The notes beneath the pieces were generated by a model that was given only the letters and a program-made list of their open reading frames with translations, ran no database searches and was not told the origin of the DNA. From contig CAVZJB010000011.1 in the NCBI GenBank assembly GCA_963775425.1, forward strand, positions 224,001 through 288,000: a stretch of DNA of 64,000 nucleotides, in the 5' to 3' direction. The stretch is from an uncultured delta proteobacterium (GTDB lineage Bacteria > Myxococcota > UBA727 > VGSZ01). Positions 19,814 to 32,522 of the stretch are shown here, piece by piece (the stretch's first letter is position 1; each line of letters begins with the position of its first letter). The position numbers were made by a program, and so were the translations under genes.

Positions 19814-21922
19814 TCACGGCTTGGCGAGCTTGGCGCGCATCGTCTCGAAGAAGGCGGCGGCCGGATCGGCGACCTCGACGACGGGCGCCACCGGCAACAG
19901 GCAATGCGCGGGGATGTCGTCGAGGAAGCGCGAGCGCCGCCGCGCGATCATCTCGTGGCGGCGCCGGCGCGACCTGGCGAACGTGCACACGAGCGTCCGC
20001 TGCGCGCGCGTGATGCCGACGTAACACAGGCGCCGCTCCTCCTCGACGCCGCGCTCGCCGCTCTCCTCGACGACGCGCCGGTGCGGCAACAGCCCTTCTT
20101 CGAGGCCGACCAGGAACACGGTGGGGAACTCGAGGCCCTTGGACGCGTGCAGGCTCATGAGCTGCACCTTGCCCTTGGCCTTCTTCTTGTCGTCCTTGTC
20201 CTTGTCCTTGTCGCGCTCATCGTCGTCGAGGGCGACGCGATCGAGGAACGCGTCGAGCGCCCCGCGCTCCGCGCTCACCAGGCGGCTCTCCGCGAGGTCG
20301 GGCGCCTCCTCGGCGTCGCGCAGGCGATCGACGAAGGCGGCGAAGGCGTCGATGACCTCCTCGATGGACTCCACGAGGCGCTCGCGCGCCGACACGTCGG
20401 TCTCGCCGTCGACGAGCGCGGCCAGGCCCGCCTCGTCGATGGCCGCGCGCGCGATGCCGGCGAGGTCCGCGTCGGGATCGTGCTCGGCCTCGGCGAGGCG
20501 CGCGCGCACGTCGACGAGCGGGCGCGCGAACGACAGGAGCGCGTCGACCTGCGCGGGCTTGAGCGGCACGTCGGGCGCGCCGGCGGCGGCGTAGTCGACG
20601 GCGCCGACGCCCTTGTCCCGCGCGCCGGTGACGACGCGCGCGACGGTCTTTTCGCCGAGGCCGCGCGCCGGGAGGTTGACCGCGCGGCGAAACGCGAGCT
20701 CGTCATCGGGGCGCGCGATGCACGACAGGTACGCGATGGTGTCCTTCACCTCGCGTCGCTTGAAGAACTCCATGCCGCCGACGACGCGATAGGGCACGCC
20801 GCGGAGCCGCAAGGCCTCCTCGAAAAGTCGCGACTGCGGCGCCGCGCGGTACAGGACGGCCACGCCCTCCGCCGGGACCTTCTCCCGCATGACGAGGTCG
20901 AAGATGCGCGCGCCCACGGAGTCGGCCTCGGCGTCGCCGTCGTCGGCGGCGACGATCTCCACGGGCCGCCCCTCGCCGAGCACGCTGCGCAAGGTCTTGT
21001 CGCGCCGCGCGCGGTTCTTGGCGATGACGGCGTTGGCGGCGCCGAGGATGAGCCCGGTGGACCGGTAGTTCTCCTCGAGCTTCACCACGGCGCAGGGCTT
21101 GCCGTCTTTGCCCTGGAACTGCTGGTCGAAGGCGAGGATGTTTTCGAGGTCGGCGCCGCGGAAGGCGTAGATGGCCTGGTCGTCGTCACCGACCACGCAC
21201 AGGTTGCGCTCGGGCCCCACGAGCAGTTGCGTGATGAGGAGCTGGATCGGGTTCGTGTCCTGGTACTCGTCGATGTGCACCCAGCGAAAGAGCGCCTGGT
21301 AGCGCTTGCGCACGTCGGGCACGTCCTCGAGGAGCTCGCGCGCGCTCAACAGGAGGTCGTCGAAGTCGAGCGCCGCGAGGGCGCGCAGGTGGGCGGCGTA
21401 CGGCTTCCAGAGCTGCGCCGCGAGGAGCGAGATCGGGTCGCCGCCGGGCTCGGGCGGGTCGACGTCGCGGCGGATGCCCTGGTTCTTCCACAGCCCGATG
21501 CGCGACAGCACCATGCGCGGCTCCTTCTCCGACAGCTTGAGCTTCAGCTCGCGCGCGACGCGTTGCAGTTGCGCGAGCTGATCGCCCTCGTCGAGGATGG
21601 AGAAGCCGTTGGACAGCCCGATGCGGTGCGCGTCCCGTCGCAGCAGGCGCGCGCACAGCGAGTGGAACGTGGACACCCACACCCCGCGCGCGAGCTTCTT
21701 TCCCGCGAGGAGCACCAGGCGCTCCTTCATCTCCTTGGACGCCTTGTTGGTGAAGGTGACCGCGAGGATGGAGCGGGGGGGCTCCCCTTGCAGCAACAGC
21801 CGGGCGATGCGCGTGGTGACGACGCGCGTCTTCCCCGACCCCGCGCCCGCGAGCACGAGCATCGGGCCGGTGTCGTGGAACACCGCCGCCCGCTGCGCGT
21901 CGTTCAACCCGTCGTCGTGCAC
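19814..21922 (-). CDS. Second UvrD/Rep-family SF1A helicase (Rep-like, no Tudor domain)
   Basis: AGAGSGKT, IDEYQDTN, LEENYRST, SLHASKGLEF, EERRLCYVGITRA; short amphipathic tail FFETMRAKL. Confidence 0.9.
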   Translation of the reverse strand: MHDDGLNDAQRAAVFHDTGPMLVLAGAGSGKTRVVTTRIARLLLQGEPPRSILAVTFTNKASKEMKERLVLLAGKKLARGVWVSTFHSLCARLLRRDAHRIGLSNGFSILDEGDQLAQLQRVARELKLKLSEKEPRMVLSRIGLWKNQGIRRDVDPPEPGGDPISLLAAQLWKPYAAHLRALAALDFDDLLLSARELLEDVPDVRKRYQALFRWVHIDEYQDTNPIQLLITQLLVGPERNLCVVGDDDQAIYAFRGADLENILAFDQQFQGKDGKPCAVVKLEENYRSTGLILGAANAVIAKNRARRDKTLRSVLGEGRPVEIVAADDGDAEADSVGARIFDLVMREKVPAEGVAVLYRAAPQSRLFEEALRLRGVPYRVVGGMEFFKRREVKDTIAYLSCIARPDDELAFRRAVNLPARGLGEKTVARVVTGARDKGVGAVDYAAAGAPDVPLKPAQVDALLSFARPLVDVRARLAEAEHDPDADLAGIARAAIDEAGLAALVDGETDVSARERLVESIEEVIDAFAAFVDRLRDAEEAPDLAESRLVSAERGALDAFLDRVALDDDERDKDKDKDDKKKAKGKVQLMSLHASKGLEFPTVFLVGLEEGLLPHRRVVEESGERGVEEERRLCYVGITRAQRTLVCTFARSRRRRHEMIARRRSRFLDDIPAHCLLPVAPVVEVADPAAAFFETMRAKLAKP

Positions 21923-21981: not shown

Positions 21982-22896
21982 TCAGAACTTGGTGTCGTCG
22001 CCCTGGATGCCGTTACAGCCGTCGACGACGAGCTCGGCGGGCTCCTGGCAGGTGGCGCCGGTGCCGTCGTCGAAGCAGTTGGCGGTGTCGCAGTCGTTGT
22101 CGTCGAGGCAGTCGTCGCCGACCTGGAGCTTGTCGGCGCAGACGGCGCCGCCAAGGCCGTTGATGTCGTTGCAGAAGTCGCTGCCGCACTCGCCGTCGAG
22201 GAAGCAGCCCTCGCCGTTTTGCTTCAGCACGATCTTCTGGCAGGTGTCGCCGTCGCAGAAGGTGCCGGGCTCGCACAGGCCGTCGGTGCCGGTGTCGGCG
22301 GTGCAGTCGTCGCCCTCCTTGCCGGGCGACTTGCAGGTGCCGGCCGCGGTGAGGAGGTCCTTGTTGTCGTTGGCGTTGTCGTCCTTGTTGAGCTCGCAAG
22401 CGCTGCCCGCGTCTGCACACTCGAAGGCCTCGAAGCAGCCCTTGCCCTCTTTGACCTTCCCGGTGCCGAACGCGAAGTTGCCGGCGCTGAAGCCGGCGCC
22501 GGAGCACTCGTCGCCGAGGTCGTCGGGGCGGAACACCTGCGAGGCGTCGCACGAGCTCAGCGCGTCGATGCCCGGCTTCAGGCACTTCTCCGCGAGCGCG
22601 CCGTCGTACTCGAAGCGCCCCTGGTTGATGGCGTCCTGGACCTCGAGCGAGTTGCCGCAGGCGGCGGTGCCGTTTTCGAGGAGCTCGTTGACGCACTCCC
22701 CCTCGTTCCTGAAGCCGGCGACGCCGAAGCCGTTGGCGAAGGCGCCCCGCTCGGCGGCGTTGCAGCACGAGTAGGTGAAGTGACAGAGCGCGCGGACCTC
22801 GCTCTCACACGCCTGATCGGCGTTGAACGGGAAGAAGAAGTTGCATGACGTGCCCGTGGAGAACGCGAGCGCGACGAGGAGGAAGGTGCGGCGCAT
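21982..22896 (-). CDS. Cys-rich lipoprotein
   Basis: MRRTFLLVALAFSTGTSC; many Cys; GxxCxxDxxC repeats; start reassigned to ATG 22896. Confidence 0.8.
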   Translation of the reverse strand: MRRTFLLVALAFSTGTSCNFFFPFNADQACESEVRALCHFTYSCCNAAERGAFANGFGVAGFRNEGECVNELLENGTAACGNSLEVQDAINQGRFEYDGALAEKCLKPGIDALSSCDASQVFRPDDLGDECSGAGFSAGNFAFGTGKVKEGKGCFEAFECADAGSACELNKDDNANDNKDLLTAAGTCKSPGKEGDDCTADTGTDGLCEPGTFCDGDTCQKIVLKQNGEGCFLDGECGSDFCNDINGLGGAVCADKLQVGDDCLDDNDCDTANCFDDGTGATCQEPAELVVDGCNGIQGDDTKF

Positions 22897-22951: not shown

Positions 22952-23881
22952 TCACTCGCGCTCGGGGCGGCCGGGCTCGAAGACGGCGTCGAGGCCGCGG
23001 GCGCGGAACCATTCGGCCATGGCGAGCTGCGCGGGCTTCTCGGTGCCGTAGTGCGTTCCGTCGACGACGGCGATGCCGGCGGCAGCCGCGCGTGCGCGAA
23101 ACGCGTCGTGGAGCGCGCGGACGAAGGGGATGCGGCACGGTGACGCGGCGTTGCCGGTGACGTACGTGGTGCACCCGCGCGCGAGCGCCTGCTCGAGCGG
23201 GGCGACGTCGGCGCCGCCGCCGGCGACCACAGCGACCCGACCCGCCGCACGCGCCGCAGCCGCGCGCGCCACGGGTCCGCGCCCCACGCCGCCGTCGGCG
23301 CGCGCGGCGATCGGGGCGCCGACGATGCGCACGGGGATGTCGTCGCCGAGCGTCGCCTTCAGGCGCGCGGCGAGCGCGGCGACGTCGAGGTCGCTGTCGC
23401 CGATGACGCCGGCGCCGCCGGGGAGGTCGGCGGTGGTGGGAAAGAACGGCTCCGTCGACGACAGGCCGAGCGCGCCGGCGATGAGGAGCGACGGGGACAC
23501 CTCGGGGTGGTGATCGAGGGGCGCGTGCGCCGTGTACACGCTGATTCCCTCGGCGCGAGCGCGCTCGAAGCTCGCGCGCGACCAGGGCGCGAACACGTCG
23601 CCGGTGGCGTCGTCTATCGGGTGCTCGGTGAACAGGAACGTCCCCGGCGCGAGGCGCGCGAACAGGGCGTCGCTCGGGAACACGCACGTGGCCACGCACG
23701 TGACGTCGTCGCCGCCCTTGAGCATGAGGCCGTTCCAGCGCTCCATCCAGCGCGGCTCGACGTACTCCTTCCAGGTCGGCGTCTCATAGACGACATCGAA
23801 GATCTCGGTCCAGTCGTCGTCGCGCACGGCGTCCACGCCGAAGAAGGCGTCGAGATCGCGCACGAGGTCATCGCGCCTCAT
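22952..23881 (-). CDS. NIF3/YbgI-like dinuclear metal-centre protein
   Basis: WNGLML, FTEHP, VYTAHAPLDHHP, VAGGG, GTHYGTE. Confidence 0.8.
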   Translation of the reverse strand: MRRDDLVRDLDAFFGVDAVRDDDWTEIFDVVYETPTWKEYVEPRWMERWNGLMLKGGDDVTCVATCVFPSDALFARLAPGTFLFTEHPIDDATGDVFAPWSRASFERARAEGISVYTAHAPLDHHPEVSPSLLIAGALGLSSTEPFFPTTADLPGGAGVIGDSDLDVAALAARLKATLGDDIPVRIVGAPIAARADGGVGRGPVARAAAARAAGRVAVVAGGGADVAPLEQALARGCTTYVTGNAASPCRIPFVRALHDAFRARAAAAGIAVVDGTHYGTEKPAQLAMAEWFRARGLDAVFEPGRPERE

Positions 23882-23893
23882 GGGAAGACGATG

Positions 23894-24973
23894 CTAGCGC
23901 GGGTCGAGGTTCTCGTCGAAAAGACAGACGCCGTCGTCGCTGTCCGGGGGCTCGGTCACCGAGTTGCCGTCGGGGCCCACGAACTCGACGAAGCTGTTGG
24001 TGCCGGTGTCGTCCCAGCACTGCGTCTCCTGCACGCCCGCGCCCGCGTCGCCGCCCGTGATGCCGCCGTGGGCGCGGCCCGCCTGCTCGGCGTTCCACGC
24101 GGCGGCGATGTGGAGGTCCTCGAGCCGCGGGGTGTTGTCGACGTCGCGCAGCGGGATGTCGGCGATGACCTCGAAGTCGAAGGTGCCCGAGCCGTCGGTC
24201 TCGCGCAGGAAGTCGTAGTGCAGCGGGGTGGCGGTGCTGCCGTCGGGACGCACGACGCCGTCGAGGTCGACGGTGATGTGGGTGTGCCCGTCGTTGTCGA
24301 ACTGGAAGCTCAGCTCACGTCCGAGCGTGCCGAAGTCCGGCAGGCGCGCGACCTCGAGGGTCATGTCGCCGCTGCCGCTGCGGGCGCCGCGGTCCTGGAT
24401 CTCGCCGGGGGAAAACGAGCCCGACAACAACACCGCGAGGCCGCTGTCGTCGTCGACGTCGGTGTCGCAGGTGACGTCCTTGCCCTTGCGGGGGCCGATG
24501 GGGCCCGCCACGGCGTGCAGGCAGAAGCCGAAGGTGGTGTCGTCGACGCGGTCCATCTCGAAGCGCGCGGTGAAGCCCTTGTCGGCGACGAAGAACGGCC
24601 CCCACACGCGCTTGCCGCGGGCGCGTGTGGTGGGCGGCTGCGCGGTGACGGCGTCGACGAGGTCGAGCAGGCTGAAGGTGAGGTTGTTGATGCCGCGCGC
24701 GGTCTGGCGGGCGGTGCAGCGCAGGTCGCCCTCGGCGCAGGCGGCCTCGAGCGCCTGTGACGTCGAGCTGTCGCTCGCGTTCGCCTCGCTGGCGGCGCCG
24801 GCGGGCCGCAGCTCCACCGCGCTCTTGGACGGCACGGCCGCGCGGAAGATCAGGTCCTCCTGCGACAAGTCCCCACACCCCGCGCCGAACGCGAGGAGCG
24901 CGAACGCCGCGGCGGTCCCGGCGGCGGACCAGCCGCGGCGGGGCTCTTCACAGGGGGGACGGGCGCTCATCAT
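23894..24973 (-). CDS. Lipoprotein of unknown function in the caspase operon
   Basis: Lipobox FGAGC; beta-rich body (VWGPF, AAWNAEQAGR, QCWD); starts 26 bp after the caspase stop. Confidence 0.75.
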   Translation of the reverse strand: MMSARPPCEEPRRGWSAAGTAAAFALLAFGAGCGDLSQEDLIFRAAVPSKSAVELRPAGAASEANASDSSTSQALEAACAEGDLRCTARQTARGINNLTFSLLDLVDAVTAQPPTTRARGKRVWGPFFVADKGFTARFEMDRVDDTTFGFCLHAVAGPIGPRKGKDVTCDTDVDDDSGLAVLLSGSFSPGEIQDRGARSGSGDMTLEVARLPDFGTLGRELSFQFDNDGHTHITVDLDGVVRPDGSTATPLHYDFLRETDGSGTFDFEVIADIPLRDVDNTPRLEDLHIAAAWNAEQAGRAHGGITGGDAGAGVQETQCWDDTGTNSFVEFVGPDGNSVTEPPDSDDGVCLFDENLDPR

Positions 24974-24999
24974 GATCTTGGACACAGCTCCGGGCGACC

Positions 25000-26622
25000 C
25001 TAGAAATCGAACCACACCGAAGCGATCCCGTCGAGCAGCGCGAGGGATCTGACTTCGTCCACGTTGTAGGGAAGGTACTGCGCGCGGCCCATCACTTCGA
25101 CGTGGCCCCAGTGCGCGAAATTCCAGCCCACCAGGGCCACCAGGCCGGGGCTGAAGGTGAGGTAGCTCTGCTCGGCGATGGGCGCCCCCGAGAGCTGGTG
25201 GTGGAACCAGTACGCGGCCGTGCGCGCGCCCCCCGCGAGGAGGAGCTGCTCGTCGACGAACCGCTCCTCCCACAACAGCGACGCCCCCGCCTCGAGCTGC
25301 GTGACCTGCGTCGGATAGGAGGCCACGCCGAGGGCGCCGCCGTCCGCCGTGCGCACCGTCTGCACGCTGCCCACGCCGACGTCGAGGCTGCCGATGAGGT
25401 GCGTGCGCAACAGGTTGTGCGCCCGCGCCTCCAGCGTCACGAACGGCAAGGAGGGGAACAGGCCGCCGTCGTTGGCGCCGTCGACGACGACCTGGCCGCC
25501 GAAGCCCAGCGACAACGACCACCCGACGGCGCGCTCGACCGTGTCCGACAGGATGGGCGTCCCCTTGGCGTAGTCGTCCTGGAAGCTCACCGTCTCCATG
25601 GTCTGGTCATTGACGGTGAACACGCCCTTCTGTCGGGCGCTCAGGCGCTGCATCAACAGGTGCGAGTCGAGGCGCTTCTTGATCGCGTATTGCCCCGTGG
25701 GCAGCGCGATGCGCGAGGCGGCGCCCGCGTCTTTGTCGACCTCGGCCACGAAGAGCTGCCGGTCGAGATCGACGACGAAGTAGCGGCCCTCGAGCGCCGC
25801 GGGGAAGTTGATGACGACGTCCGCGTCGCCGGGCTCGGTGAGCACGACGTCGCCGGCGCCGCGCAGGTCGTAGGCGTACGTGGGGTGCTGCGCGCCCGCG
25901 CGGGTCACGGCCGTGGCGGCGACGGTGCGGCCGTAGGCGTAGGCGTAGGCCTCCTCGAGGGTGACCTTGCCGTCGTGGTTCTTGTCGGCGTCGCCGCGCA
26001 GCCCCGTGGCCAGGTAGTGCGTGAAGAACGAGCCCTGGATGTCGTCGCTCTCCTGCGAGACCTCGTTGGCCGACGACGACGTGATGATCACCTGCCCCTT
26101 GGCCGAGAGGTTCTCGTCGACGGCGACCACGAAGGGCGGCGCGATGGTGCCGCCCTTCTCGCGGATCATGGCGCCGGCGCCGCAACTGTCGATGAAGGCG
26201 AGCCGCACGTCGGCGCTCGAGCGCTCGAGGCGCGTGCGCACCGTCTGCATGTCGAGCATGGAGTCGCCCAGGCGCAGCACGCCGTTTTGCGCGTGGCCCG
26301 AGTAATAGAAGAGGAACACCACCTCGTCGCCCTTGGCCTTGGCCTCCGAGACGCGGCGCTCCACCTCGTCCATGGTGTTCAAGACCGCGGCGGCGTCGCC
26401 GTCGATGACGGAGAGCATGTCGGCGCGGGTGAAGCCGCCGAGCTCCGCGAGCACGTCGGCGAGGCGCGCGCCGTCGCGCTCGGGGTAGCGCAGCGCGGGG
26501 AGCCCGGGGCCGCCTTCGTGGTTCGCCACGATGAGGGCGAAGCGCTCGGTCTTCGCAACGGCCGGCGCCGCCCCGAGCAGGGCGGCGAGGACTCCGGCCA
26601 GGAAGAGGGCGCGATTGCGCAC
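25000..26622 (-). CDS. Exported caspase/metacaspase (peptidase C14) with putative C-terminal beta-barrel
   Basis: Signal peptide; RFALIVAN, YYSGHA (His), IDSCGAG (Cys), GSFFTHYL..GLRGDAD..DGKVTL, QHP; amphipathic strands ending SVWFDF. Confidence 0.88.
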   Translation of the reverse strand: MRNRALFLAGVLAALLGAAPAVAKTERFALIVANHEGGPGLPALRYPERDGARLADVLAELGGFTRADMLSVIDGDAAAVLNTMDEVERRVSEAKAKGDEVVFLFYYSGHAQNGVLRLGDSMLDMQTVRTRLERSSADVRLAFIDSCGAGAMIREKGGTIAPPFVVAVDENLSAKGQVIITSSSANEVSQESDDIQGSFFTHYLATGLRGDADKNHDGKVTLEEAYAYAYGRTVAATAVTRAGAQHPTYAYDLRGAGDVVLTEPGDADVVINFPAALEGRYFVVDLDRQLFVAEVDKDAGAASRIALPTGQYAIKKRLDSHLLMQRLSARQKGVFTVNDQTMETVSFQDDYAKGTPILSDTVERAVGWSLSLGFGGQVVVDGANDGGLFPSLPFVTLEARAHNLLRTHLIGSLDVGVGSVQTVRTADGGALGVASYPTQVTQLEAGASLLWEERFVDEQLLLAGGARTAAYWFHHQLSGAPIAEQSYLTFSPGLVALVGWNFAHWGHVEVMGRAQYLPYNVDEVRSLALLDGIASVWFDF

Positions 26623-26628
26623 GTCGGG

Positions 26629-27495
26629 CTACCTCGGGGCGACCTTCACGATGTGCACCGAGCCTTGCACGTAGGCGTCGGGGAGCGGCAAGCGCTCCGT
26701 CGACACGAGATCGGCGTGGGACGACGCCAGCTCTTGCGCGGCCTTCTCGACGCGGGCGCGCACGGCGGCGACGTCGCCGTCGCCGTAGACGACGAAGAAG
26801 CGCTCGGGCCCGGTGCTGTCGTCGAGGACGACGCTGTCGGGCAACAGGCGAGGCTTGTCGTCCGCGGCCGGCGCGGGGCCCTTGGCGCGGCCGGCGACGT
26901 CCTCGGCGTCGTACACCGTGACCTCGCCGCGGCCGTCGACGCCGACGAGGACCATGGCGTTGTGCGCGGCGTGCTCGCGGACGGCGAACTGGATCTGGTC
27001 GCCGGCGCCGAGCCGTTCGCCTTCGTGGCCGAAGTGCGCGTTGTGACCATCGCGCACGAAGAAGCCGACGCTGGCCTCGCCGCCCTTGATGCCATTGCCC
27101 CCGGCGCGCCCGTCGCTCGGCGGACGCGTGACGACGATGATGACGGCGGCGGCGGCGACGACGGCGCCGAGGCCGGCTTGCACCCGCAGGCTCTTGAGGG
27201 GCGCGAGGAGCGCGGCGACGACGGAGGCGAAGCCGGAGGCGTGGGCGGTGACGCGGCTTTCGTGCTCCGCGAGGAAGCGCTCGAGCGGGACCTCGAGGCG
27301 GAGGGCGGCGTCGGCGGCGCGCTGCTCGTCGACGAGGGCGTCGTGGCGCGCCTTGAGGGCGGCGTCGCTCGCGAGGAGCCCGGCGATGGCGCTGCGGCGC
27401 TCGGCGTCGAGCTCGCCCGCGATGTAGCGCGAGAGCTCGAAGCCGCTGACGGCGGGCTCCGGGATATCGAGGGGGGGCAGGCGGAGGGTGGGCAT
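26629..27495 (-). CDS. Single-TM anti-sigma-like (ActD/DUF4384-like) protein
   Basis: N-terminal ELSRYIAGELDAERR; TM LGAVVAAAAVIIVV; IKGG; LGAGDQIQF, VGVDGRGEVTVY, LPDSVVLDDSTGPERF. Confidence 0.75.
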   Translation of the reverse strand: MPTLRLPPLDIPEPAVSGFELSRYIAGELDAERRSAIAGLLASDAALKARHDALVDEQRAADAALRLEVPLERFLAEHESRVTAHASGFASVVAALLAPLKSLRVQAGLGAVVAAAAVIIVVTRPPSDGRAGGNGIKGGEASVGFFVRDGHNAHFGHEGERLGAGDQIQFAVREHAAHNAMVLVGVDGRGEVTVYDAEDVAGRAKGPAPAADDKPRLLPDSVVLDDSTGPERFFVVYGDGDVAAVRARVEKAAQELASSHADLVSTERLPLPDAYVQGSVHIVKVAPR

Positions 27496-27506
27496 GGCGT
27501 GGTCCC

Positions 27507-28031
27507 CTAGATCGGGGCCTCCTGGAACTCGATGCCGGGCACGGCCTTTTGGATCTCGTCGCGGGCGACCGCGATGAACTCACGAAGGCGCTTGCGCAGC
27601 GTCGGCGCGCTGAGGTTCACGAGGGCGCAGATCTCGGACTGCGTCATTTCGTCGACGAAGTAGTAGGTGGCGATCTCGGCGAGCTCCGGCTCGACCCTGG
27701 CCATGGCCACGCGCAGCAACTGGTGGCTCTCGGCGAGGGACTTGAGCTCGACGGGCGGCGCGCCCTCGACTTCCGCTTTGTATTTGTCGTGCCAGGCGGC
27801 GCGCTTGGCGCGAATGACGTTCAAGCAATGGTTGGTGGCGATGCGGGTCATCCACGTGATGGGGCTCGACTCACCGCGAAACTGCGCGAGGTTCTTCTGC
27901 ACCTTGATGAAGACGTCGTGCATGGCGTCCCTCGCCTCTTCCTTGTCGCGCAGCAGGTACAGACATCGTGCGTACACGCGGCTCCCGTACTTCGTGTAGA
28001 GCTCCGTCAGGAGCTCTCGATCGCTCGCCAT
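27507..28031 (-). CDS. ECF RNA polymerase sigma factor
   Basis: LYTKYGSRVYARC..EARDAMHDVF, FRGESSPITWMTRIATNHCLN, EMTQSEI..LSAPTLRKRL; start 28031 or 28052. Confidence 0.92.
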   Translation of the reverse strand: MASDRELLTELYTKYGSRVYARCLYLLRDKEEARDAMHDVFIKVQKNLAQFRGESSPITWMTRIATNHCLNVIRAKRAAWHDKYKAEVEGAPPVELKSLAESHQLLRVAMARVEPELAEIATYYFVDEMTQSEICALVNLSAPTLRKRLREFIAVARDEIQKAVPGIEFQEAPI

Positions 28032-28810
28032 CTGTGACTTCGACACGCCCATGCTCCGGGATGGAAACTCCCAGATCCGTCGGATCCCGTCGATCTTCCG
28101 GGGGCCTGCGCGTCGACGTGATGTGCGGCGCTGTGCGCGGCGCCCGTCACGCCGCCGGGCGCGCTCGATAGCTGCGCTGCACGAGGCCGCCGTCGAACGA
28201 TCGCGCGCCCTGGAGCGCGAGCGGCGTGCGGCGCAGGGGGCCGAAGCTACACCCACGCGCTCCGCGATGCCGGCGACGACTTCCTGCTCGACGACGTCGA
28301 GATCGAGCGCCTGCAGGGGCTTCAGCGGCGGTGCGCGCTCCCGCCGGAACGGATACGCGCGATCCATGCAAGCGTGATGGCGAGGGCACTTCATGTCGTC
28401 GCGGACGACGCAATCGTCACGGAGGCGGAAGCAGAGAAGCGCTGGCCCCTCGCCTGCGGACTGCGCGCGCTCGGCGGGGCCCCAGGTGAGATCGCGACGC
28501 GATGAGCACGTGCATCGCATGTGCTTGAGCGCGGGATGTGCGCCGCTGCGCCCGCCTTGGACGCGACGTGCGCCGGGTCGTCCGTCAGCGCGTGACCCGG
28601 AGCGACGCGTGTATGCGCGTCGCCGGCTCTGCCGCGACAGCGTCATGCCGCATACGTCGGGGTGCGGCGGGTCGTCGACCATCCGGCCACCGAGGAGCCG
28701 CCGCGTCGGCGTGACCCGCGAGCGCGTCGTCGTTGGTGCGCCCGGCGCTCGTTCGCTCGTTCCATCCAACGCGGCGCGCTCGCGCGAACCCTGCGCGAGC
28801 GCGTCTGTCG

Positions 28811-30577
<1,767 letters not shown>

Positions 30578-30703
30578 CGCTGCTCCGGCGTACAGACGCA
30601 GCGTCGTCCGAGCAGCAGGACGGGGATGCCGGCTGTCCCGGGATCGACCGGGGTGCATGTTCTGGAGATGGCGAAAACGCGAATCGTTTAGTCTCCAACC
30701 AAC

Positions 30704-31186
30704 ATGCGCGGCTTCACCCTGATCGAGGCGCTCGTTGTCGTCGCCATCGCCGGCATCCTCGCGGCTCTTGCGATGCCGAGCGTGTCCCAGACGGTTCGGC
30801 GCGAGCGTTCGCGCGGCGAGGTCGTGAAGATCGCGGACGCCGTCATCGACGCGCGAACGCGGGCGCGCATCCGCCTCTGCAAGACGCTCGTCACCATGGA
30901 CGCGGCGAACACCCAGGTCATCGTCGGGCCGGATCCCGCGGACACCGACGCCACCTGCGCCGGCATGGAGACCACCAAGACGGCGATCAGCGGGAACCTC
31001 GTGTCCATCGCTCCGTTCACCATCAACGGCACCGCCCAAACGCAGCTCGTCTTCGGCGCCGACGGCGGTGTCGAGGACGCCGGCAAGCCGTCGCGCAAGC
31101 GGGCGCTCTCCGTCGTCACTGTCTTGACCGGCGGCACGCGCACCATCGAGGTGTGGCCGGCCACCGGCGCCGTGAGGTTGCGCTGA
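30704..31186 (+). CDS. FimU/FimT-like type IV minor pilin
   Basis: Class III signal RG|FTLIEALVV; C-terminal IEVWPATGAVR. Confidence 0.85.
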   Translation: MRGFTLIEALVVVAIAGILAALAMPSVSQTVRRERSRGEVVKIADAVIDARTRARIRLCKTLVTMDAANTQVIVGPDPADTDATCAGMETTKTAISGNLVSIAPFTINGTAQTQLVFGADGGVEDAGKPSRKRALSVVTVLTGGTRTIEVWPATGAVRLR

Positions 31187-31569
31187 TGAATCGCGGTTTC
31201 AGCCTCATCGAGGTCATGATCTCGTCGGTGATCTTCGCCGTCTCCGTGGCCGGCGTCGTCTCGGCGTTTCACACGTCCACCCGCCTGTCGGCGCACTTCG
31301 AGCACGAGACCGCCGCCGCCCTCATCGGGGAGAGCGTCCTCGAGGAGCTCATCTTGAAGGCGCGCGGCGACGCGGACCTCGCGCCCAACGCCACCATCTC
31401 GCGCACCTACGACGCAAAGGGGGACCAGAGCCCGCTCGGTCCCTACACGGCCCGGTGGACGGTCACACCGAACGAGCCCATCGCCGGGCTCAAGCAGATC
31501 GCGCTCACGGTGACGTGGGCCGAGGAGACCACCACGCGGCGGGTGGCGTTCACCACGGTGCGCGAATGA
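31186..31569 (+). CDS. PilV-like minor pilin
   Basis: RG|FSLIEVMIS; AALIGESVLEEL; IALTVTW; TGATG coupling. Confidence 0.85.
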   Translation: MNRGFSLIEVMISSVIFAVSVAGVVSAFHTSTRLSAHFEHETAAALIGESVLEELILKARGDADLAPNATISRTYDAKGDQSPLGPYTARWTVTPNEPIAGLKQIALTVTWAEETTTRRVAFTTVRE

Positions 31570-32522
31570 GGGCCCGCGGCTTCACGCTCCTCGAGATGAT
31601 GGCGGCGCTCGCCATCTCGGGCATCATCGCCGCGGCCTCCATGACCGCGTTCATCGGCATCTCCCACGCGACGCGCCGCGTGGAACAACAGGCGCACGCC
31701 GACGCCGAAGCCAAGCAGCTCGTCGACTATCTGATGGGCTCCGTGCAGCAGGCGGGCGGCGGGCTGGTCCGTCCGTGGATGGGCATCGCCATCGACGACA
31801 ACTGCACGACTTCGCTGACGGTGGCCGGCCAGACGCTGCCGGCGTGCGACGGCTCCGACCGCCTCCACATCGCCACGCCCGACCCGGACGGCAACCAGTG
31901 CACCATCGTCAGCGTCAGCGGCAGCACCATCACGTCCACCGGCACGGGCGCCACCTGCTGTCTCAACGCCACCGACTTCGAGAAGAAGCCCCTCCTCATC
32001 ATGGCGGGAGACAGCACCGCGAGCGCCGGGGAGTGGCGCACGGACTTCTGTGACGTCGTCGACACCACGGCGTGCACGTGCACGCTCAAGGGCGACAGCG
32101 CCTATCAGACGGCCGGCGCGGGCACCGCCGACTTCAGCGGCGGCGTGATGACGGCGGGGAACACGCTGAGCTTCTTCCTCGATCCCCCGAGCGGCGTGCT
32201 CGAGATGCTCTCGTCCGAGGACGACGGGACTCCCGCGATCTCCGAGCTCGCCGATCACGTCGGCGACCTCCAGGTCGAGCTCGGCTTCGACACCACCGGC
32301 GATCAAGTCGTCGACCTGGAGCAGCCCGGCTACGCGTCGGTCGACCGGACCCTCCTGCGCATGATCCACGTCGGGATCATCGCCAGCGTGCCGGTCCCCG
32401 TGCGCGAGACCCGATCCTCGGCGCAGCTCTTCGACGGCCCTGTGCGCTCCGCGACGCACGGCCGCTATTTCCACGCCATCAGCACGCGGGCCACGCTCCG
32501 CAACCTCAACCTCTTCTACTGA
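31566..32522 (+). CDS. PilW-like minor pilin (Cys-rich)
   Basis: RG|FTLLEMMAAL; VQQAG; LADHVGDLQVELGFD; C-terminal TLRNL. Confidence 0.85.
   Translation: MRARGFTLLEMMAALAISGIIAAASMTAFIGISHATRRVEQQAHADAEAKQLVDYLMGSVQQAGGGLVRPWMGIAIDDNCTTSLTVAGQTLPACDGSDRLHIATPDPDGNQCTIVSVSGSTITSTGTGATCCLNATDFEKKPLLIMAGDSTASAGEWRTDFCDVVDTTACTCTLKGDSAYQTAGAGTADFSGGVMTAGNTLSFFLDPPSGVLEMLSSEDDGTPAISELADHVGDLQVELGFDTTGDQVVDLEQPGYASVDRTLLRMIHVGIIASVPVPVRETRSSAQLFDGPVRSATHGRYFHAISTRATLRNLNLFY

Follow-up and report, generated by a model that had tools for sequence, protein, structure and literature searches.

Introduction

The release of extracytoplasmic function (ECF) sigma factors by proteolysis of their anti-sigma factors is a textbook theme: RseA is cut by DegS and then by RseP, and in systems of the FecA/FecR/FecI type it is an outer-membrane (OM) protein that starts the signal. 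To our knowledge, the proteases that make the first cut are serine proteases, and we know of no trigger for most ECF groups. Metacaspases depend on calcium and are activated by self-cleavage after Arg or Lys. Here, we describe a locus that bears on both subjects. It lies in a 64,000-nucleotide stretch of DNA (hereafter, the window) on contig CAVZJB010000011.1 of an uncultured delta proteobacterium of the Myxococcota (GenBank assembly GCA_963775425.1), in which four genes encode an ECF sigma factor, a single-pass anti-sigma factor, an exported caspase-family (Peptidase_C14) protein with a predicted C-terminal beta-barrel, and a lipoprotein. From the sequence, we lean towards reading the four as a self-activating envelope signalling cassette in which the barrel-tethered protease would trigger release of the sigma factor by cutting the anti-sigma factor.

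Several described systems come close to this arrangement. Asplund-Samuelsson et al. (2012, PMC3501461) report that four of the five metacaspases of Myxococcus xanthus DK 1622 share a predicted operon with a sigma-70-family factor, and the same source gives sigma-metacaspase operons in Anaeromyxobacter, Haliangium, and Sorangium. A preliminary description of the window had mentioned similar clusters in myxobacteria; this gene association was printed in 2012. Also in M. xanthus, DdvA is an anti-sigma factor with a fused periplasmic TPR-CHAT part; the proposal is that, ahead of RseP, this part cleaves the linker of the other subunit in the dimer (PMC11506125). In type III-E CRISPR systems, the caspase-like Csx29 cuts Csx30, and the C-terminal domains of some Csx30 proteins are DUF4384 (bioRxiv 10.1101/2022.08.17.504292). 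In addition, CHAT proteins occur beside ECF54 sigma factors (review, PMC8999054), and there are cytoplasmic EACC2-caspase systems with ECF sigma factors (PMC8195603).

Four genes kept together across relatives

The four genes lie on the minus strand in the order sigma factor, anti-sigma factor, C14 protease, and lipoprotein, separated by gaps of 11, 6, and 26 bp (Table 1), in agreement with the co-directional arrangement and spacing first reported for them. The G+C content of the window is about 72%. The source assembly comprises 8.26 Mb in 18 contigs, and the set is single-copy in this genome. The records that come closest to the caspase locus are metagenome assemblies filed under the labels Myxococcota, Myxococcales, or Deltaproteobacteria.

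A genome scan found 406 relatives, from which 80 loci were kept. A sigma gene lies on the same strand within 1300 nt in 67 of the 68 related loci that have more than 1500 nt upstream, and an open reading frame (ORF) for a single-pass protein stands between sigma and caspase in 66 of the 67 sigma-bearing loci, L017 being the locus without a clean ORF. The position of the lipoprotein gene could be judged in 67 loci with enough downstream DNA: it is directly downstream in 57, directly upstream of the sigma gene in eight, on the other strand in one, and missing in one. Gene order is held down to 35–40% protein identity, in lineages labelled Myxococcales, Polyangia, Nannocystaceae, and Bradymonadia, and seven other neighbours in the window are each common to only 0 to 5 of the 80 loci. 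Since the arrangement recurs in nearly all related loci, it is more than chance, and the quartet named in the preliminary description does co-occur elsewhere. The C-terminal half of the protease is present in 239 of the 401 sampled genomes of the phylum (G195 among them unpublished), and in 198 of 316 high-quality genomes.

A caspase-family protease with a predicted outer-membrane barrel

Residues 27–226 of the protease match Pfam Peptidase_C14 (E 3.8e-13, 50.1 bits against a cut-off of 21.4). In a structural comparison with VIA-align, residues 23–263 aligned with caspase-7 and caspase-3, zymogen structures among them, at Z 21 (rmsd 2.3–2.8 over 187–203 residues), and the best matches in a profile search against solved structures were metacaspases 4, 1, and 9 (E 2.5e-6 to 9e-4). 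The His-Cys dyad, previously noted from the motifs SGHA and DSC, is indeed kept: His110 and Cys147 are invariant in all members of an alignment of 35 full-length homologues that are 39–78% identical. Also invariant is Asp145, two residues before the catalytic Cys, which aligns with the DSC of metacaspase-1. Together, the invariant D50 and D145-S-C147 align with the conserved metacaspase Asp and DSC, and by these aligned residues the protein fits the metacaspase/orthocaspase branch. Metacaspases cut after Arg or Lys (PMC3501461).

The export claimed for this protein stands in so far as a Sec signal peptide is legible by eye at the N-terminus, and in most rows of the homologue alignment the N-termini are comparably hydrophobic. 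An AlphaFold2 model (mean pLDDT 85.7) divides the protein into a caspase domain (residues 25–255), a beta-sandwich (260–345), a low-confidence linker (355–363), and eight long strands (367–539), the blocks of which mostly have pLDDT 89–98. Foldseek matched the model to the barrels OmpA, OmpX, Ail, and NspA, with E-values from 2.9e-8 (OmpA) to 5e-6 and target TM-scores of 0.61–0.73 (OmpX 0.73, Ail 0.68, NspA 0.69); caspases were matched too. At the profile level, Pfam OMP_b-brl is detected at E < 0.01 in 2 of the 35 homologues. The C-terminal residues are SVWFDF, and the last residue among the 35 homologues is Phe in 11, Leu in 16, Arg in four, and Pro in four. As modelled, the C-terminus is a small eight-stranded OM barrel of the kind seen in the OmpA N-domain, OmpX, Ail, and NspA, and the layout first read from the letters, a C14 domain followed by an eight-stranded C-terminal barrel, is thereby upheld by model and Foldseek alike. 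Since small OM barrels have both termini facing the periplasm, the caspase domain should hang into the periplasm from the OM, and from the model we infer a protease that is OM-anchored with its caspase domain periplasmic.

The caspase domain also holds an EF-hand-like loop between two of its helices. The pattern, which we take to be that of an EF-hand loop, recurs in 29 of the 35 homologues. Of 75 locus caspases, 65 have it as well, a hint that calcium may control the protease.

Two longer homologues, P0065 (703 aa) and P0084 (790 aa), were considered as fusions with the anti-sigma factor and proved not to be such fusions. P0084, a metagenome protein, is an N-truncated caspase with part of the barrel, joined to a lipoprotein-like C-terminal part that matches residues 103–343 of the window lipoprotein at E 2e-32. 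This join could be a real fusion, or an artefact of assembly or gene calling.

The sigma factor and the anti-sigma factor

The sigma factor matches Pfam Sigma70_r2 (E 1.3e-13, 50.9 bits against a cut-off of 24) and NCBIfam TIGR02937, sigma70-ECF (74.7 bits against 42.9), and it matches Sigma70_r4_2 at E 6.2e-4 with 19.8 bits, under the cut-off of 25.7 for that family. With regions 2 and 4 only and a length of 174 aa, in the range of about 170–200 aa, it is an ECF (group 4) sigma-70 factor, and the gene for the anti-sigma factor follows 11 bp downstream. Group ECF216, which is found in Myxococcales only, was considered for this sigma factor and set aside because its gene context differs. Anti-sigma factors of group ECF25 can carry DUF4384; the word "caspase" was not found in the part of the ECF supplement of PMC7826278 that was examined.

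The model of the anti-sigma factor (pLDDT 84.4) shows helices at residues 18–102, a membrane helix at 110–122, and an immunoglobulin (Ig)-like beta-sandwich at 142–285, whose first strand begins at 142. The linker between them has pLDDT below 50 at 123–132 and 134–136. A single transmembrane segment followed by GRAGGNGIKGG had been pointed out before, and the sequence agrees, with one hydrophobic helix at about residues 104–122. A helical N-terminal domain with one membrane helix is, in the model, the layout of a class I anti-sigma factor. In an alignment of 69 family members (the window protein and 68 ORFs in the same position at other loci), zf-HC2 is matched by 37 and the motif HxxxCxxC occurs in 48. 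DUF4384 (PF14326) is matched by 32 of the 69 at E ≤ 0.01, and in a closer scan of 12 relatives nine matched at E ≤ 0.1 with 13.5–28.5 bits, one of them above the cut-off of 27. A DUF4384-like ectodomain, as proposed in the preliminary description, therefore holds at the level of the family only; the window protein itself is without any Pfam hit at E ≤ 0.1, and NCBIfam likewise returned nothing for it.

Foldseek returned nothing at E ≤ 0.001 for this ectodomain, and profile and fold searches gave no TPR or CHAT hit in its roughly 150 residues. In a wide VIA-align search the top Z was 8.9, to the Ig-like AGS-C domain, and macroglobulin domains reached Z 7.2–8.4, within the tool's common range. 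On the model, the ectodomain is placed no more precisely than as an Ig-like sandwich. A common origin with the beta-sandwich of the protease was considered and rejected (hhalign probability 1.4%, E 0.036 over 20 columns); as controls, the caspase domain and the barrel gave 0.2% and 0.1% against the same ectodomain.

A motif shared by the protease and the anti-sigma factor

From the membrane helix of the anti-sigma factor to its first periplasmic strand, the only columns conserved at 90% or more among the 69 members are those of R-x-K-G, with R135 (Gly in the window protein), K137, and G138 each at this level. The exact pattern R.KG is present in 56 of the 69, where shuffled residues would lead one to expect 1.44. 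The remaining 13 have xxKG, RxK[AST], or RIRG, and Lys or Arg occupies the third position in 69/69, which confirms the conserved basic-Gly step after the membrane helix that the preliminary description had singled out. The motif stands 8–30 residues past the membrane helix and 3–6 residues before the first strand in the family (four before it in the window model), about 25 residues ahead of the start of the DUF4384 match.

The same motif is found in the protease. There, T-R-x-K-G follows the catalytic Cys by 7–10 residues, with K156 and G157 invariant and R154 conserved in at least 90% of the 35 homologues, and RxKG is present in the protease loop at 65 of 66 loci. It falls within residues 150–172, the sole long low-confidence loop of the caspase domain in the AlphaFold2 model, which we take to correspond to the loop that is cleaved, some 12 residues past the Cys, when caspase-3 and caspase-7 become active. 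The only other C14 gene of the source genome has no R-x-K-G motif. One tetrapeptide in two flexible segments, together with an enzyme of the branch that cuts after Arg or Lys, is the strongest argument for a protease that cuts both itself and the anti-sigma factor, and it suggests that the protease activates the system by cutting the anti-sigma factor at the shared motif.

The lipoprotein and the promoter-like motifs

The N-terminus of the fourth gene product reads LAFGAGC up to Cys33, followed by GDLSQ, and in an alignment of 52 homologues Cys33 is conserved at 90% or more. A lipobox start is found in 61 of 72 lipoprotein homologues, and a mature N-terminus of the form C-G-[DN]-[LY]-S-N-[ED] recurs among them. 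With its signal peptide and lipobox Cys, the protein is, as read from its sequence, a lipoprotein. It has no Pfam or NCBIfam hit, its best E in a profile search against solved structures was 0.6, and an Atlas search returned only Myxococcota clusters annotated as hypothetical or lipoprotein.

Promoter-like motifs were sought with a regular-expression scan, accompanied by seven control patterns. The pattern TTTCY-N16-GTGTCSAA has exactly two matches in the window, against 0.00 expected (100 shuffles): P1, ahead of the sigma gene, and P2, ahead of the lipoprotein gene. A looser form (TTTCC or TTTTC, a spacer of 14–18 nt, and (C/G)(G/T)GTC-N-A) is present upstream of sigma in 31 of 68 regions, the window and 67 loci. 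A looser form also precedes 9 of 61 lipoprotein genes in other loci, against 0 of 80 in each of two control regions. Genome-wide, the strict motif has nine hits, six of them within 45 nt of a gene start. One of these six genes is the sigma gene and four encode lipobox proteins, including a 27%-identical paralogue of the module lipoprotein, and the seven control patterns together gave 50 hits, one of which precedes a gene for a lipobox protein. Pfam found an esterase fold or nothing in the candidate targets, and PSD/PSCyt domains and a PD40 repeat in two candidates with the looser motif. Because the motif stands before both the sigma gene and the lipoprotein gene, it points to self-activation with the lipoprotein as an output, and we predict self-activation plus a small lipoprotein regulon. 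The preliminary description had left the lipoprotein as either sensor or output; output is favoured, since its gene carries its own copy of the sigma-type promoter motif, and it could be both.

In genome G000, copies of the motif lie at C5:152738, C8:199190, C11:215514, C11:48250, and C16:505080, with looser copies at C8:32429 and C13:59274 (outside the window). Counted from the start of the motif, these copies are 33–52 nt before the start codons of lipoprotein or secreted-protein genes. The loci in which the best match to the lipoprotein is upstream of the sigma gene are L043, L044, L047, L053, L056, L061, L063, and L069. In L044, L061, and L069 this upstream gene carries the promoter-like motif, so that the operon there seems to begin with the lipoprotein gene.

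Features of the locus and its genomic setting

A fifth co-directional gene, of the NIF3 family, begins 12 bp beyond the lipoprotein gene; as it is found in 0 of 80 related loci, it lies outside the set. A Pfam scan of seven neighbouring ORFs identified a UvrD helicase, the NIF3-family protein, pseudopilins, and an Ig-domain protein. Between the helicase gene and the NIF3-family gene there is an ORF for a Cys-rich protein resembling secreted proteins or lipoproteins. The DNA beyond the sigma gene is richer in G+C (77.6%). It contains long ORFs that overlap and encode much Gly, Pro, and Arg, as well as a minus-strand ORF with an Ig-like domain. The pseudopilin cluster points away from the module.

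Table 1. Positions of the four genes, their main features, and neighbouring elements in the window
Feature	Coordinates	Strand	Basis
ECF sigma factor, 174 aa	27507-28031	-	Sigma70_r2, TIGR02937
Single-pass anti-sigma factor, 288 aa; predicted layout: helical domain in the cytoplasm, one membrane helix, disordered linker, and Ig-like (DUF4384-like) domain in the periplasm	26629-27495	-	Model and family profiles
Predicted exported Peptidase_C14 (caspase-family) protein, 540 aa, with C-terminal barrel	25000-26622	-	Pfam, AlphaFold2, Foldseek, VIA-align
Predicted lipoprotein, 359 aa, Myxococcota-only family, lipobox Cys33	23894-24973	-	Lipobox and homologue alignment
Anti-sigma membrane helix, residues ~104-122	27130-27186	-	Hydropathy; helix 110-122 in model
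G-I-K-G of the anti-sigma factor, residues 135-138, window form of family R-x-K-G; candidate site-1 cut after Lys137	27082-27093	-	Conservation and model
R-E-K-G of the protease, residues 154-157, in loop after catalytic Cys; candidate self-activation site	26152-26163	-	Conservation and model
Catalytic His110 codon (SGH)	26293-26295	-	Invariant in 35/35
Catalytic Cys147 codon (DSC)	26182-26184	-	Invariant in 35/35
Predicted Sec signal peptide of the protease, residues 1-23 (RNRALFLAGVLAALLGAAPAVA, then K; cut between AVA and K)	26554-26622	-	Read by eye
Beta-sandwich between caspase domain and barrel, residues 260-345	25588-25845	-	AlphaFold2
Predicted eight-stranded OM-type beta-barrel, residues 367-540, last residue Phe	25003-25524	-	AlphaFold2, Foldseek
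EF-hand-like loop DKNHDGKVTLEE, residues 213-224, between helices 199-211 and 222-237 of the caspase domain	25951-25986	-	Loop pattern
Promoter-like motif P1, TTTCC-N16-GTGTCGAA, ends 7 nt before sigma start codon	28039-28067	-	Pattern scan
Promoter-like motif P2, TTTCT-N16-GTGTCCAA, overlaps caspase stop codon, ends 4 nt before lipoprotein start codon	24978-25006	-	Pattern scan
UvrD-type helicase gene	19814-21922		Pfam
Cys-rich secreted or lipoprotein-like ORF	21982-22650	-	No Pfam family
NIF3-family gene	22952-23881	-	Pfam
Region of 77.6% G+C	28100-30600		
ORF with He_PIG Ig-like domain and Gly-rich repeats	28811-30580	-	Pfam
Pseudopilin cluster, three successive genes with prepilin-type N-terminal methylation motifs	30704-32522	+	Pfam N_methyl E 4e-8 to 4e-6

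Proposed mechanism

From the observed gene order and its conservation, the folds, the motifs, and the promoter-like motifs, we infer location, cleavage, order of events, and signal as follows. At rest, the anti-sigma factor would keep the ECF sigma factor at the inner membrane. Once exported, the C14 protein would be anchored in the OM by its own barrel, with the metacaspase-like domain and the Ig-like spacer in the periplasm. A cue, possibly calcium acting through the EF-hand-like loop, would lead the protease to mature by a cut between Lys and Gly of the R-x-K-G in its own loop. The mature protease would then cut the anti-sigma factor between Lys and Gly of its R-x-K-G (G-I-K-G in the window) just outside the membrane helix, and the Ig-like domain would be lost. 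A site-2 protease of the RseP type would complete the cut and free the sigma factor; the source genome has eight stretches matching Peptidase_M50 in five open frames, including a 680-aa frame with a split match. Finally, the free sigma factor would use P1 to transcribe its own operon and P2 to transcribe the lipoprotein gene; a few further lipoprotein genes are probably targets too. The idea that an OM caspase acts as the site-1 protease on the adjacent anti-sigma factor goes back to the preliminary description, and its anatomical predictions (the barrel, the co-occurrence of the genes, and the basic-Gly step after the membrane helix) have held up. The precise prediction is a cut after the Lys of R-x-K-G, both in the loop of the enzyme and in the linker of the anti-sigma factor.

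Several points weigh against this mechanism. The window anti-sigma factor has Gly and not Arg at the first position of the motif, and it is without the HxxxCxxC zinc motif, which makes it a non-zinc member of a mostly ZAS (class I) family. Co-variation between the middle positions of the two motifs is weak, with 12 of 59 pairs identical against 7.3 expected, a count reached by 60 of 2000 permutations with relatedness uncorrected. The conserved linker motif would be explained just as well by binding of a partner or by cleavage by a different protease, and the protease motif is so close to the Cys (nine residues) that it may belong to the substrate groove and not be a cut site. The role of D50 and D145 in the specificity pocket that selects Arg or Lys is a presumed one. 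Reach is also not obvious, since the cut site is near the inner membrane and the protease is tethered to the OM. On the promoter side, the two copies in the window had themselves helped to define the pattern. A scan with a weight matrix proved too noisy and was set aside, most of its 289 hits falling in T-rich coding sequence. Lastly, one locus, L025 (5914-7518), has the caspase and the lipoprotein without an adjacent sigma or anti-sigma gene, and its caspase has S-I-K-G in the loop and D-T-C as the catalytic motif.

A bolder form of the mechanism, which we regard as rather improbable, casts the barrel-tethered metacaspase as the sensor, one that would itself report on the integrity of the envelope. 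As long as the cell is healthy, the protease would be fixed in the OM, out of reach of the R-x-K-G lying 8–30 residues from the inner membrane. Failure of barrel assembly, narrowing of the periplasm, or a change in calcium at the EF-hand-like loop would then let the zymogen mature and cut the anti-sigma factor.

Alternative explanations

The strongest alternative, a possible one that we nonetheless doubt, is that the system makes the protease and the lipoprotein as its products and is not triggered by them. The sigma pair would answer some other cue through ordinary proteases, and the sigma factor would raise an OM-tethered protease and lipoproteins for envelope remodelling, cell death, development, or predation. 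Many ECF operons carry target genes beside their regulator, a copy of the promoter motif stands directly before the lipoprotein gene, the candidate regulon consists of lipoproteins, and L025 keeps the caspase and lipoprotein genes without a neighbouring sigma pair. Moreover, myxobacterial metacaspases have been discussed as possible autolysis enzymes (PMC3501461). However, this explanation leaves two observations unaccounted for. One is that R-x-K-G is the sole conserved element of the juxtamembrane linker and is the same as in the protease loop; the other is that the protease gene stays within the sigma operon after P1 in 67 of 68 loci while the lipoprotein gene moves.

The flow could also be reversed, with the linker serving as a decoy or docking site that restrains the protease, or as bait for foreign proteases; we consider this quite unlikely. 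As bait, R-x-K-G would be exposed to the proteases of prey, competitors, or phage, the module would report an attack, and the resident caspase would be a partner and not the cutter. The structural neighbours of the ectodomain do include macroglobulin domains of complement C3/C4/C5 and alpha-2-macroglobulin, which are protease baits, and fusions of DUF4384 with protease domains are described as frequent (bioRxiv 10.1101/2022.08.17.504292). Yet these fold matches are weak and generic: the Z values of 7.2–8.4 are in the common range, the top match is an unrelated Ig-like domain, and Foldseek adds nothing at its threshold. The fully conserved catalytic dyad and the aligned Asp residues argue for an active enzyme, and a motif in the enzyme's own loop suits self-processing better. 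That the four genes are neighbours through chance or vertical inheritance, with no functional link, is barely credible. Shared ancestry of the relatives does make the conserved order overstate independence, but the order is kept to 35–40% identity across many lineages while flanking genes change (0 to 5 of 80), the gaps within the set come down to 6–26 bp, and the genes have motifs and promoter-like elements in common.

Comparison with known systems

The theme of a caspase-fold enzyme controlling an anti-sigma factor is already known; what is new here is the candidate for that role, a separate metacaspase-like protein predicted to be OM-tethered. Our literature search, whose coverage stopped short of subscription journals, found no paper on the barrel, the motif, or the mechanism of the module. 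The operons reported in 2012 are like this set in having a metacaspase-type C14 gene with a sigma-70-family factor, a likeness in gene association. In the sections of PMC3501461 covered here, the record is one of gene association only, with no barrel, anti-sigma factor, shared motif, promoter, or mechanism. As four sigma-metacaspase operons are reported in M. xanthus DK 1622 (PMC3501461), a tractable model may exist.

Metacaspases and orthocaspases, such as Arabidopsis MC4 and MC9 and yeast Yca1, share with the window protease the His-Cys dyad, the Asp after strand 1, and D-S-C. Unlike the protease described here, with its barrel, the known metacaspases are soluble, and cytoplasmic or extracellular; we know of no metacaspase with a C-terminal OM barrel or with a canonical EF-hand-like loop inside the domain. 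If the proposed mechanism is true, the vague label of "cell death" on bacterial metacaspases would give way to a defined role in signalling.

The RseA and Fec systems resemble the proposed pathway in that an ECF sigma factor is released by a first, periplasmic cut in a single-pass anti-sigma factor, followed by a second cut by an M50 protease. They differ in that the first protease is a serine protease (DegS or Prc), and that the OM partner is a TonB-dependent transporter and not a protease. If the barrel-tethered metacaspase were indeed the sensor, no earlier trans-envelope pathway would have its site-1 protease in the OM, and no caspase-family enzyme would have been shown before to initiate regulated intramembrane proteolysis from the periplasmic side.

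The preliminary description had offered Csx29/Csx30 as the precedent, which stands as a case of caspase-like control of a sigma factor, but DdvA (PMC11506125) is a closer one. In the craspase system (Csx29/Csx30/RpoE), as in the module proposed here, a caspase-like protease cuts the linker of an anti-sigma-like protein and thereby alters an ECF-type sigma factor (PMC11506125). Craspase, however, is cytoplasmic, RNA-guided, built on TPR-CHAT, and encoded at a CRISPR locus, whereas this set has a C14 protease and would belong to the envelope. The Pfam scan of the seven neighbouring ORFs showed no CRISPR context, with no search aimed at cas genes. The module resembles DdvS/DdvA in that a single-pass anti-sigma factor holds the ECF sigma factor, and in the proposal that a caspase-family His-Cys enzyme makes the first cut in the flexible linker beside the membrane helix. 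DdvA combines TPR-CHAT part and anti-sigma factor in one protein that acts within a dimer; here, a gene of its own encodes the Peptidase_C14 protease, with a predicted OM barrel, the ectodomain of the anti-sigma factor is small and Ig-like, and no defence genes were seen beside the set. If the mechanism proposed here is true, DdvA, Csx29-Csx30, and this module would be variations on one theme, that of a caspase-fold enzyme cutting an anti-sigma factor.

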